A stretch of 64,000 nt of DNA from an uncultured bacterium. Lineage in GTDB: Bacteria; Bacteroidota; Ignavibacteria; Kapaibacteriales; UBA2268. Positions within the stretch are counted from its first letter, which is position 1; the number at the start of each line of letters is the position of its first letter. This document shows positions 45,585 to 47,969 of this stretch, in pieces. Under the pieces are notes generated by a model, which did not search any database, was not told where the DNA came from, and saw only the letters and a program-made list of their open reading frames with translations. The position numbers and the translations under genes were made by a program. The stretch spans positions 4,151,820 through 4,215,819 of the forward strand of contig OW818676.1 of NCBI GenBank assembly GCA_942493235.1. The letters are read 5' to 3'.

Positions 45585-47150
45585 TTATTTCGCAAGTGAG
45601 ACACTTCTTCTCTCGCGAATAACGGTAACTTTAATTTGACCGGGGTATTCCATTTCGTTTTCGATACGTTTGGCAATTTCGGCAGCCATTGAATCAGCCA
45701 ATACGTCATCAATTTTCTCCGGCTCTACAATTACTCTAACTTCTCTGCCGGCTTGGATTGCAAAAGTCTTGGCAACGCCTTCAAATCCTTGAGCTAATGT
45801 CTCTAATTTTTCTAATCTTTTAACATAGTTTTCAAGTGATTCGCGTCTTGCACCCGGGCGAGCTCCACTGATAGAGTCAGCCGCTTGAACTAATACTGCA
45901 TAAGGCGATTCCATTTCGATATCTTCATGGTGAGCACCGATGGCATTGCAGACTACTTTGTGTTCTTTGAATTTTTTAGCAATTTCGTAGCCGATAAGAG
46001 CGTGCGGACCTTCTGTATTTTGGTCAACACATTTACCAATATCGTGGAATAAACCGGCACGTTTAGCAATATTCGGGTCTAATCCTAATTCCGAAGCCAT
46101 AAGCCCGGCTAAGTACGAGACCTCTATAGAGTGATTTAGCAAGTTCTGTCCGTAACTCGAGCGGTATCTCATCTTACCGATAAGCTTGAGGATTTCGTTA
46201 TGCACAGAGTGCAATCCGACTTCAAGAACAGTATTTTCACCAATACGAATGATTTCATCGTCAAGCTCTTTACGCGTTTTTTCTACGATTTCTTCAATTC
46301 TTGCTGGGTGAATTCTACCGTCAGACATTAATTTTTCTAAAGCTTTTTTGGCAACTTCACGCCTGAATGGGTCAAAACCGGAAATCACAACAGCTTCGGG
46401 TGTATCGTCAATTATCAAGTCGATACCTGTAGCTGCTTCGAAAGCTCGGATATTACGACCTTCACGACCAATTATTCTACCTTTCATTTCATCACTATCA
46501 AGGTTTACTACCGATACAGTAGTTTCGACACTGTGGTCTGATGCAGTTCTTTGAATCGCATCAATAATAATATTGCGTGATTCTCTCTGTGCGTTCATTT
46601 TTGCATCATCTCTAATTTGCTTTATTAATTGAGCAGATTCAGATTTAGCTTCGTTTATGAAATTATCAGTCAAAGTCTTTTTAGCTTCATCTTTGGTCAT
46701 GCCGCTGATTTTCTCAAGTGCCGCCATTTGCTTTTTTGAAGACTGCTCAGCATCAGTTAGTAATGCTTTTAGTTCAACTTCTTTTTTCTTTAGTTCTTCG
46801 TCAAAAGCAGTCAACTGTTTGTCTTTTTTATTTACTTGCTCAAGCTTAGTGCCTAAGTCGTCTTCTTTTTGTTTAATCTGCTTTTCAGATTGTTGCAATT
46901 TCTGTTTTCTTTGTTGAGTTTCATTTTCGAAGTCCTGCTTTTTCTTATGCCATTCTTCTTTAACTTCAAGCAGTCTTTCTTTTTTTAAATTGGTAGCTTC
47001 TTTTTCTGCATCTTTTAAAATTAATTTTGCATTTTGTTCAGCTTCAGTAATTTTAGTGGCTGCTATTTTAGTACCGATAAAGTATGCGATACCAAAACCA
47101 ATAACAACAGCAACTATCCCAACAATTACAAAGATTAAATTACTATCCAT
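45585..47150 (-). CDS. rny: Ribonuclease Y (start probably the MDSNLIF Met at 47150 rather than 47186)
   Basis: N-terminal TM helix, coiled coil, KH domain (GRIIGREGRNIRAFE), HD domain (HSIEVSYLAGLMA...HDIGK). Confidence 0.9.
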   Translation of the reverse strand: MDSNLIFVIVGIVAVVIGFGIAYFIGTKIAATKITEAEQNAKLILKDAEKEATNLKKERLLEVKEEWHKKKQDFENETQQRKQKLQQSEKQIKQKEDDLGTKLEQVNKKDKQLTAFDEELKKKEVELKALLTDAEQSSKKQMAALEKISGMTKDEAKKTLTDNFINEAKSESAQLIKQIRDDAKMNAQRESRNIIIDAIQRTASDHSVETTVSVVNLDSDEMKGRIIGREGRNIRAFEAATGIDLIIDDTPEAVVISGFDPFRREVAKKALEKLMSDGRIHPARIEEIVEKTRKELDDEIIRIGENTVLEVGLHSVHNEILKLIGKMRYRSSYGQNLLNHSIEVSYLAGLMASELGLDPNIAKRAGLFHDIGKCVDQNTEGPHALIGYEIAKKFKEHKVVCNAIGAHHEDIEMESPYAVLVQAADSISGARPGARRESLENYVKRLEKLETLAQGFEGVAKTFAIQAGREVRVIVEPEKIDDVLADSMAAEIAKRIENEMEYPGQIKVTVIRERRSVSLAK

Positions 47151-47374
47151 TTTGTTTCCTTCCCATAAAAAAATACGTGCATTCACACCATAGTATAATA
47201 AGCACTTTGTTTCTCAATTCCATTAATTATATATATTTTTAAAGTTGTTTCCCATTATATTGTTTATTAAATCATTAAGTTCATAATTATCCCTTAATTT
47301 GCTATCTATATTTATTTATATTCAAAGAACGTAAGTACCAATATTTTCGTTTATATGTTAATAAAAATAATAAA

Positions 47375-47585
47375 CCGCAACTCAACCATTGGAGTAATCT
47401 CGTACAAATCGGGAAGAACCCAACCTGACACATTGGGTGGTATCCCAAATATATTTCGCTTCCACTGAATCCCGAAGAATTACCGATTTTCACCGGTCGA
47501 GGCCTGCAATTTATACACGGAGGCTACCTCCCTTATACTCTACTTATAGGTTCTTTCGTTTGTAATGACAACGATTGAGTTGCGG
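47375..47585 (-). ncRNA. Candidate structured ncRNA, possibly 6S RNA (ssrS), immediately downstream of zapA
   Basis: ccgcaactcaa (47375-47385) is perfectly complementary to ttgagttgcgg (47575-47585), closing a ~210-nt element; internal GC-rich segments in AT-rich surroundings; 6S RNA follows zapA in many bacteria; strand and identity unverified. Confidence 0.3.
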
Positions 47586-47681
47586 CGTTAATTTTTACCG
47601 TTTCTAATATCTATATTAATCGAATAGTATTCCTCATAATAATATTAAACAAATTCCCTCGATGCCAATTATGGCTATTCA

Positions 47682-47969
47682 CTAAGAAGCATCTTTTAAA
47701 GTCTGCTCTAATTTCTCTGCCATTTTCTGCAGTTCTTCTCGTAGGAAATCTTTATCTATATTACTTTGCTCTTTTGATTGATGGTACTTTTCTGCTATAT
47801 TTAAAGCTGCAAGTACGGTTACAGTGATGGTTGACTCATTAGGCATCTTCTCCTGAACTTTGCTAATTTCATTATTAACCATGTCCGCGGTTAATTGCAG
47901 AAGCTTATCATTGCTACTCTTTAAATTATACTCTTTTCCGCCTATTATTGTCCGCATCGTAAAATTCAA
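47682..47969 (-). CDS. zapA: Cell division protein ZapA-like
   Basis: 95 aa: MRTIIGGKEYNL...TVLAALNIAEKY followed by a coiled-coil C-terminus. Confidence 0.65.
   Translation of the reverse strand: MNFTMRTIIGGKEYNLKSSNDKLLQLTADMVNNEISKVQEKMPNESTITVTVLAALNIAEKYHQSKEQSNIDKDFLREELQKMAEKLEQTLKDAS

Follow-up and report, generated by a model that had tools for sequence, protein, structure and literature searches.

The 6S RNA, a small RNA that sequesters RNA polymerase by imitating an open promoter, is regarded as nearly universal and is expected in most bacteria; it is recognised by its structure and not by its sequence. To our knowledge, whole phyla are still without a 6S annotation. The subject of this study is a structured segment between the genes zapA (cell division protein ZapA) and rny (ribonuclease Y, RNase Y) in a 64,000-nt stretch of contig OW818676.1 (hereafter the window), which originates from an uncultured bacterium of the Kapaibacteria/Ignavibacteria type. 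The segment is a conserved, single-copy and strand-specific structured RNA gene with a fold composed of a rod, a bubble and a junction, and with a terminator-like end. Covariance-model scores indicate a weak, reciprocal homology to the experimentally supported 6S RNA of Bacteroides. The zapA-rny segment is probably a divergent 6S RNA and a distant relative of 6S-Bacteroidales (Bacteroidales-1).

Two lineage-specific forms of 6S RNA are of importance here. 6S-Flavo (RF01685) is a variant from Flavobacteria, members of the same superphylum, and is missed by the general 6S model (PMC2864571). The 6S RNA of Bacteroides thetaiotaomicron is BTnc017; its sequence is listed in the supplement of the transcriptome paper and its product RNAs were detected (PMC7366714). 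A scan of BTnc017 identified it as the Rfam family RF01693, which is described as 'Bacteroidales-1, 6S-Bacteroidales RNA suggested' (179 bits). In a study of Segatella copri, RF01693 was handled as a 6S homolog, and it accumulates in stationary phase. As for the canonical 6S RNA (SsrS, RF00013), ygfA is expressed by read-through downstream of ssrS in Escherichia coli (PMC7641849).

A conserved structured RNA between zapA and rny

The original prediction, made from the letters of the window, proposed either a 6S RNA or a structured leader of rny, closed by a perfect 11-bp helix and containing GC-rich stretches. The helix is present: the plus-strand sequence at 47375-47385 (ccgcaactcaa) is the exact reverse complement of 47575-47585 (ttgagttgcgg). 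Both GC-rich stretches were also found, at 47411-47440 and 47518-47532. The predicted coordinates (47187-47681) do contain the structured RNA but represent the entire zapA-rny spacer, while the RNA proper occupies only ~47363-47586.

On the minus strand the 11-bp repeat extends to 18 bp with G-U pairs (P1 in Table 1). The minus-strand fold of a 231-nt segment has an energy of -73.8 kcal/mol (z -4.5), and none of 200 shuffles was equally good. The plus-strand fold is weaker (-58.6 kcal/mol, z -2.6), and only on the minus strand does the helix lead into a U-rich tail. The RNA therefore has the same orientation as zapA and rny. It is confirmed that the segment is structured far beyond chance.

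Conservation was analysed in 80 related loci, taken from genome assemblies by an RNase Y protein search. According to the names of the metagenome-assembled genomes (MAGs) and of the RNase Y proteins, these belong to Kapaibacteria, Ignavibacteria and 'Bacteroidota/Chlorobiota'. With BLASTN and an nhmmer profile, ~70 of the 80 loci were found to have the segment, before rny and in the same orientation. In most of the related loci zapA was found upstream of the RNA (tblastn). A covariance model (R1) was built of the RNA core only (148 positions, 35 pairs), and the closing stem was assessed separately. Of 81 sources, the window among them, 75 gave exactly one R1 match each, in every case upstream of rny and on its strand. 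The core in the window (47411-47556) scored 124 bits (E 1e-22), and a copy was also detected in the closer relatives L201 and L202. Among the loci with the RNA, L080 is one from Melioribacter. In four of the six sources missed by R1 the contig ends too near rny, and thus 75 of the 77 loci with sufficient upstream sequence are positive. The remaining two (L014 and L048) have sufficient sequence upstream of rny, yet the RNA was not found in them even with search filters off. Nor was zapA found in either of them (tblastn). The zapA-RNA-rny cluster may have been rearranged in these lineages. RNase Y protein searches with the proteins of the window and of L045 as queries gave the same clade only, with no Chlorobia or Flavobacteria loci.

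Some of the related assemblies carry unexpected names. Many of the MAGs are titled 'uncultured Hyphomicrobiales', and single ones Chloroflexota, Desulfobulbaceae, Armatimonadota and Ectothiorhodospiraceae. These titles look wrong, since the RNase Y proteins are 60-82% identical to those of Kapaibacteria/Ignavibacteria and the loci have the same zapA-RNA-rny order. The 'Chloroherpeton' label of L045 looks like a binning label; its nearest relatives are of the Ignavibacteria type.

The predicted structure is supported by covariation. In the R1-based alignment of 75 sequences, standard pairs occupy 85.7% of the cells, compared with 38-48% when the partners were slid by 1-3 columns. Both-sided changes were found in 29 of the 35 pairs (10-18 in the slid controls), the covariation score was 0.392 (≤0.10 in the controls), and none of 500 shuffles reached the observed values. 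This alignment is model-fitted and thus favours the structure; the identical pairs already covaried on plain MAFFT alignments. Within the helices of the apical arm (P3, P4, P5 and the junction helix) 78-89% of the cells are paired, and both partners have changed in 22 of 25 pairs. The innermost pair of P2 covaries (CG 41, UG 16, UA 14), as do the nine terminal pairs of P1 (27 homologs). In each of the 35 homologs whose ends are defined, the 5' and 3' closing arms pair with each other, with a median of 33 intermolecular pairs (z -7.6 vs shuffled arms). Three extra pairs that would extend P2 into the bubble (RNAalifold) were paired in 58% only and were dropped. The internal loop is therefore larger than first drawn.

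Exactly two apical hairpins inside a helix CCNC/GNGG are present in 68 of the 75 homologs; their stem sequences differ and together they span 16-134 nt. In some relatives the second apical hairpin is much enlarged: the apex measures 134 nt in L075 (2633-2872) and 90 nt in L032 (2602-2796), compared with 41 nt in the window. Because the rest of the RNA is retained in L075 and L032, this hairpin tolerates large insertions.

The perfect 11-bp terminal inverted repeat could also belong to a DNA element, such as a miniature inverted-repeat transposable element or an insertion sequence remnant. A small protein gene could likewise be considered, as two mechanical open reading frames overlap the segment, one of 63 aa on the minus strand (47302-47493) and one of 42 aa on the plus strand (47437-47565). 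That there is no RNA gene at all is nevertheless hardly credible. The 64-kb window and each positive related locus contain a single copy, and its syntenic site is shared by 75 loci, which does not suit a DNA element. An apex that varies between 16 and 134 nt while retaining two hairpins misfits a reading frame. In addition, pairing within the helices is maintained by compensatory changes and by G-U pairs that work on one strand only.

The fold starts with a closing duplex of ~33 bp, followed by a central bubble of 16 x 14 nt, the apical arm, and a three-way junction with two hairpins (Table 1). The RNA is ~212 nt long (47586 to 47374) and ends in the U-rich tail, giving about 212-225 nt overall. 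A 6S central bubble was what the original prediction suggested looking for in the fold, and a large bubble between closing and apical stems was indeed found. The segment thereby has the shape of the 6S class, an irregular duplex of ~150-250 nt with a large central bubble.

Comparison with described 6S RNAs

Bacteroides loci with the BTnc017 sequence were taken from gut metagenomes. R1 detected the Bacteroides 6S RNA at full length in 72 of 80 such loci with 22-29 bits, and nothing else in 1.1 Mb up to E 10. With filters off, the match in one 8-kb Bacteroides locus reached 23.9 bits (E 0.0024), and the next one only 9.6 bits. In the opposite direction, RF01693 was the best of 4227 Rfam families in L023 (20.4 bits, E 0.2), L060 (18.8 bits, E 0.36) and L032 (17.1 bits, E 0.88). 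All three matches are on the correct strand and in register at the apical domain. With a sequence-only profile, the Bacteroides 6S RNA was matched weakly and locally (E 0.61 among 2001 sequences); structure-aware models were required.

The two RNAs also resemble each other by eye. They have a common 5' end (AGCCGUAU in BTnc017 vs AGCCGCAU), a common 3' end (AUGCGGCUUUUUU) and common apical motifs (GCGGGCCACAUCC...CGGUGGAU). In both, a 5' AGCCG(C/U)AU is paired to a 3' AUGCGG(C/U), after which there is a U-run. The paired termini of RF01693 (AGCCGcAU... with ...GUGCGGCUUUUU) thus have their counterpart in the family consensus of the zapA-rny RNA (AGCCGCAUUA...UnAUGCGGUUUUUUU) and in the window (CGCCGCAAC...GUUGCGGUUUAUU). 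As the termini are outside R1, they provide independent support for homology. A short, conserved purine-rich helix lies beside the A/U-rich 5' bubble strand, GAAACUC/GAGUUUC in Bacteroides and AAGAACC/GGUUCUU here. The apical arm of both ends around a two-hairpin three-way junction, with flanks GCGGGCC and CGGUGGA in RF01693 and GC(A/G)GGCC and C(A/G)GUGGA in the zapA-rny RNA.

The consensus structure of RF01693 covers the apical domain only, with both flanks unpaired. In one Bacteroides locus (L089, 3959-4136), the 6S RNA is closed by a perfect 12-bp helix between its termini AGCCGUAUCGAC and GUCGAUGCGGCU, and GAAACUC pairs with GAGUUUC in a second helix. The RF01693 model under-describes the RNA, which may explain why distant relatives were missed.

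There are also differences between the two. The zapA-rny RNA is ~30-40 nt longer and its closing duplex has ~33 bp, compared with ~20 in Bacteroides. The Bacteroides gene has a TAcaTTTG -7 box, and none was seen here.

The similarity to canonical 6S RNA is architectural. The size class is similar, and in both a large central bubble separates the closing stem of a rod from its apical stem. The zapA-rny RNA gene is located directly downstream of zapA, as in beta- and gamma-proteobacteria, where the zapA-ssrS synteny invoked by the original prediction is documented (PMC7641849). It is probably co-transcribed with its downstream neighbour, as ssrS is with ygfA, but this neighbour is rny. Unlike the canonical apex, which is a simple hairpin, the apex of the zapA-rny RNA is branched, and its closing stem is followed by a U-run resembling that of an intrinsic terminator. 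No sequence or covariance-model similarity between the two was detectable. In being a lineage-specific variant that the general model misses, the RNA also resembles 6S-Flavo, but the RF01685 model had no match on the window or on 20 related loci. Lineage-specific divergent forms of 6S RNA were thus known earlier (6S-Flavo, Bacteroidales-1), and the zapA-rny RNA probably adds another. A text search of the literature for Ignavibacteria with 6S RNA gave no match.

Several points weigh against the 6S assignment. No family of Rfam 15 reached its gathering score in the whole window or in the 20 related loci. RF00013, RF01685 and RF01693 did not match the spacer of the window even at E ≤ 10, the sole match at this threshold being a chance snoRNA (small nucleolar RNA) with E 9. 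The scores that connect the RNA to RF01693 are sub-threshold (17-29 bits vs a gathering score of 60 bits). With scores this far below 60 bits, the RNA is a distant relative of RF01693 and not a member by the Rfam criterion. P3 of the zapA-rny RNA (GGGA.../...ACCC) is without match in Bacteroides, and the order of genes differs, being infC-(rpmI)-rplT-RNA in Bacteroides (L089) and zapA-RNA-rny here. The search for a second, canonical 6S gene covered 64 kb of the genome. A location so close before rny, and so well conserved, fits a cis-acting leader as well, which is considered below. The original prediction treated the lack of a covariance-model hit as grounds for refutation; no hit was obtained in the window, and this rule would have led to a wrong rejection of the 6S reading.

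Flanking genes, transcript ends and the relation to rny

The features of the locus are collected in Table 1. All three genes, in the order zapA-RNA-rny, are on the minus strand, and the Pfam matches agree with the names given to the flanking genes by the original prediction. The true start of zapA is likely the ATG at 47957, judging by its relatives: it gives a protein of 91 aa, and ZapA has 91 aa in L201 and 90 aa in L202. RNase Y homologs are full-length at 520-521 aa, with identity of up to 93%.

Table 1. Features of the zapA-rny locus in the window (positions are those of the window, 47586 being the 5' end of the RNA)
Feature	Position	Strand	Details
zapA (cell division protein ZapA)	47682..47969	-	Pfam PF05164 ZapA, E 4.4e-14
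Spacer upstream of the RNA, possible promoter region	47590..47668	-	sigma-70-like TTGGCA-N18-TATTAT at 47668..47639, pattern match only
Whole 6S-like RNA	47363..47586	-	begins with the G of GCCGCA at 47586; pairing ends at 47374; U-rich tail UUUAUUAUUUU to ~47363
P1 closing helix, 5' strand GCCGCAACUCAAUCGUUG	47569..47586	-	partner 47374-47391
P1 closing helix, 3' strand CAAUGGUUGAGUUGCGGU	47374..47391	-	U-rich tail immediately after
Short helix ACAAA/UUUGU	47563-47559 with 47408-47404	-	
P2 AAGAACC/GGUUCUU	47555-47549 with 47420-47414	-	sequence nearly invariant
Central bubble, 5' strand UAUAAGUAGAGUAUAA	47533..47548	-	16 nt, A/U-rich, sequence variable; unpaired in the covariation-supported structure
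Central bubble, 3' strand AAUGUGUCAGGUUG	47421..47434	-	14 nt, consensus ACUGUGU..GUUG, highly conserved
P3 GGGAGGUA/UACCACCC	47532-47525 with 47442-47435	-	conserved A-A mismatch
P4	47521-47512 with 47453-47444	-	
P5, 5' strand UUGC	47509-47506 with 47459-47456	-	
Junction helix, 5' strand CCUC	47502-47499 with 47465-47462	-	
Apical hairpin ACCGGU-GAAA-AUCGGU	47497-47482	-	GAAA loop
Apical hairpin AAUUC-UUCG-GGAUU	47481-47468	-	UUCG loop
GTTCTTTGAA box between RNA and rny	47322..47331	-	3 matches in the window vs 0.8 expected; sole intergenic one
rny (ribonuclease Y), 521 aa	45585..47150	-	start ATG at 47150; RNase_Y_N, KH and HD Pfam matches

Upstream of the RNA there is no obvious terminator of zapA, so zapA transcription may continue into the RNA gene. 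A small hairpin (GCCA-UAAU-UGGC, 47675-47664 on the minus strand) stands directly after the zapA stop codon, without a U-run behind it. The ~70 nt upstream of the RNA (47590-47660) are nearly identical to positions 960-1030 of L201, the RNase Y of which is 93% identical. Between the RNA and rny, in contrast, the two spacers can no longer be aligned. This combination points to a promoter or leader with a function in the upstream region.

In 42 of 74 relatives, for example in L003 (2669-2677) and L037 (2672-2680), an 11-nt box, GTTCTTTGAAA, precedes the RNA core by 40-83 nt and the closing helix by 8-45 nt. No other position around the box is conserved in these 42. In the window, L006 and L009 the box is downstream of the RNA, and it was not found in L201, the closest relative. 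It repeats the GUUCUUU strand of P2. As a general promoter -7 box, GTTCTTTGAAA was rejected: it is nearly confined to the zapA-rny locus, has no conserved -35 partner, and does not fit TAnnTTTG, the -7 box of Bacteroidetes. The words enriched upstream of genes are of the ATATTTG type and not GTTCTTTGAAA. The box may be a specialised promoter element, a binding site of a regulator, or a segment of the precursor RNA.

At the other end, T makes up 7 or more of the 10 nt that follow the closing helix in 34 of 35 homologs, and most transcripts probably end at this U-run. The distance from the T-run to the start codon of rny is 17-436 nt (median ~97) and is below 60 nt in 17 of the 46 measured loci. 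Such a short gap leaves little space for a separate promoter, so rny is probably expressed at least partly by read-through.

Given this probable read-through, the second suggestion of the original prediction, a long structured leader that autoregulates rny, retains some probability. A leader acting only in cis would be an attenuator or an RNase Y cleavage target which sets RNase Y synthesis, without a function in trans. Within the clade the RNA is always upstream of rny and on the same strand, often 17-60 nt before the start codon, and both the scant space for a promoter and the terminator-like U-run likewise favour this reading. The range of distances up to 436 nt is however unusual for an expression platform. 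A conserved alternative (antiterminator) pairing was looked for in the homologs and was not found. The sole candidate for a rearrangement is the product-RNA release hairpin ACCCA/UGGGU, which could form in the window but was rejected, as only 41 of 75 homologs form it. Moreover, the related Bacteroides RNA is not beside rny and behaves as a 6S RNA, and the rod with a bubble is the shape of a 6S RNA and not of a known riboswitch (no Rfam match). A purely cis-acting leader is thus quite improbable. The 6S reading is better supported by the rod-and-bubble architecture, the covariation, and the weak, reciprocal kinship with RF01693.

A leader of a ribonuclease gene is not without parallel. The 5' UTR (untranslated region) of E. 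coli rne is an autoregulatory leader, and as in that case, the long structured segment is directly upstream of a major endoribonuclease gene and on the same strand. Unlike leaders of the rne type, the zapA-rny RNA has a terminator-like end of its own and a 6S-type bubble. We know of no leader of the rne type with homologs elsewhere in the genome that act as 6S RNA.

Proposed mechanism and significance

If the zapA-rny RNA is a 6S RNA, the mechanism could be as follows. Acting as the mimic of an open promoter, the rod with its bubble would keep the housekeeping RNA polymerase holoenzyme occupied; the presumed template for product RNA is the 5' bubble strand. Upon nutrient upshift, the polymerase would copy this strand and subsequently the invariant AAAGAAC strand of P2, resulting in a short product RNA. 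The product RNA would unzip P2 and the enzyme would be released. During synthesis of the RNA itself, the U-run would terminate most transcripts and some transcription would continue into rny. The RNA may then be cut from a 6S-rny precursor, like the E. coli 6S RNA from the ssrS-ygfA transcript.

Not every feature of the RNA is readily explained by mimicry of a promoter. The near-invariant segments AAAGAAC/GUUCUU, GCAGGCC, GUGGAAG and ACUGUGU exceed the needs of a pure promoter mimic, and the synteny with zapA and rny is conserved. Both points favour a homolog of Bacteroidales-1 that acts in trans in another role than polymerase sequestration, for example as a partner or scaffold of RNase Y or of a division protein. 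Such a role is unlikely: the architecture and the nearest relative both favour 6S RNA, and no feature specifically indicates another partner.

The 6S reading could also be extended to an element with a dual purpose, being both a 6S RNA and an obligatory leader of rny. Synthesis of RNase Y, the main nuclease of mRNA decay, would depend on read-through of the 6S terminator, and RNase Y would in turn help to cut the 6S RNA from its precursor. The adjacency of zapA and 6S, common to beta- and gamma-proteobacteria as well, could go back to an old or functional connection of 6S with cell division and not to coincidence, and the GTTCTTTGAAA box would possibly be a part of this control. This extension is rather doubtful. 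If true, the dual role would constitute a feedback loop between a global brake on transcription and mRNA decay, and the significance of the RNA would grow if its coupling with rny proved to be regulatory.

For annotation, the result concerns one housekeeping RNA gene that current pipelines leave blank, and it indicates that the curated RF01693 model is too narrow. Kapaibacteria and Ignavibacteria, which are without an annotated 6S RNA, gain a candidate with a covariation-supported structure and a working covariance model. The conserved zapA-6S-rny arrangement echoes the proteobacterial zapA-ssrS adjacency. The kinship with the Bacteroides 6S RNA suggests one ancestral 6S form for the Bacteroidota-Ignavibacteriota group.

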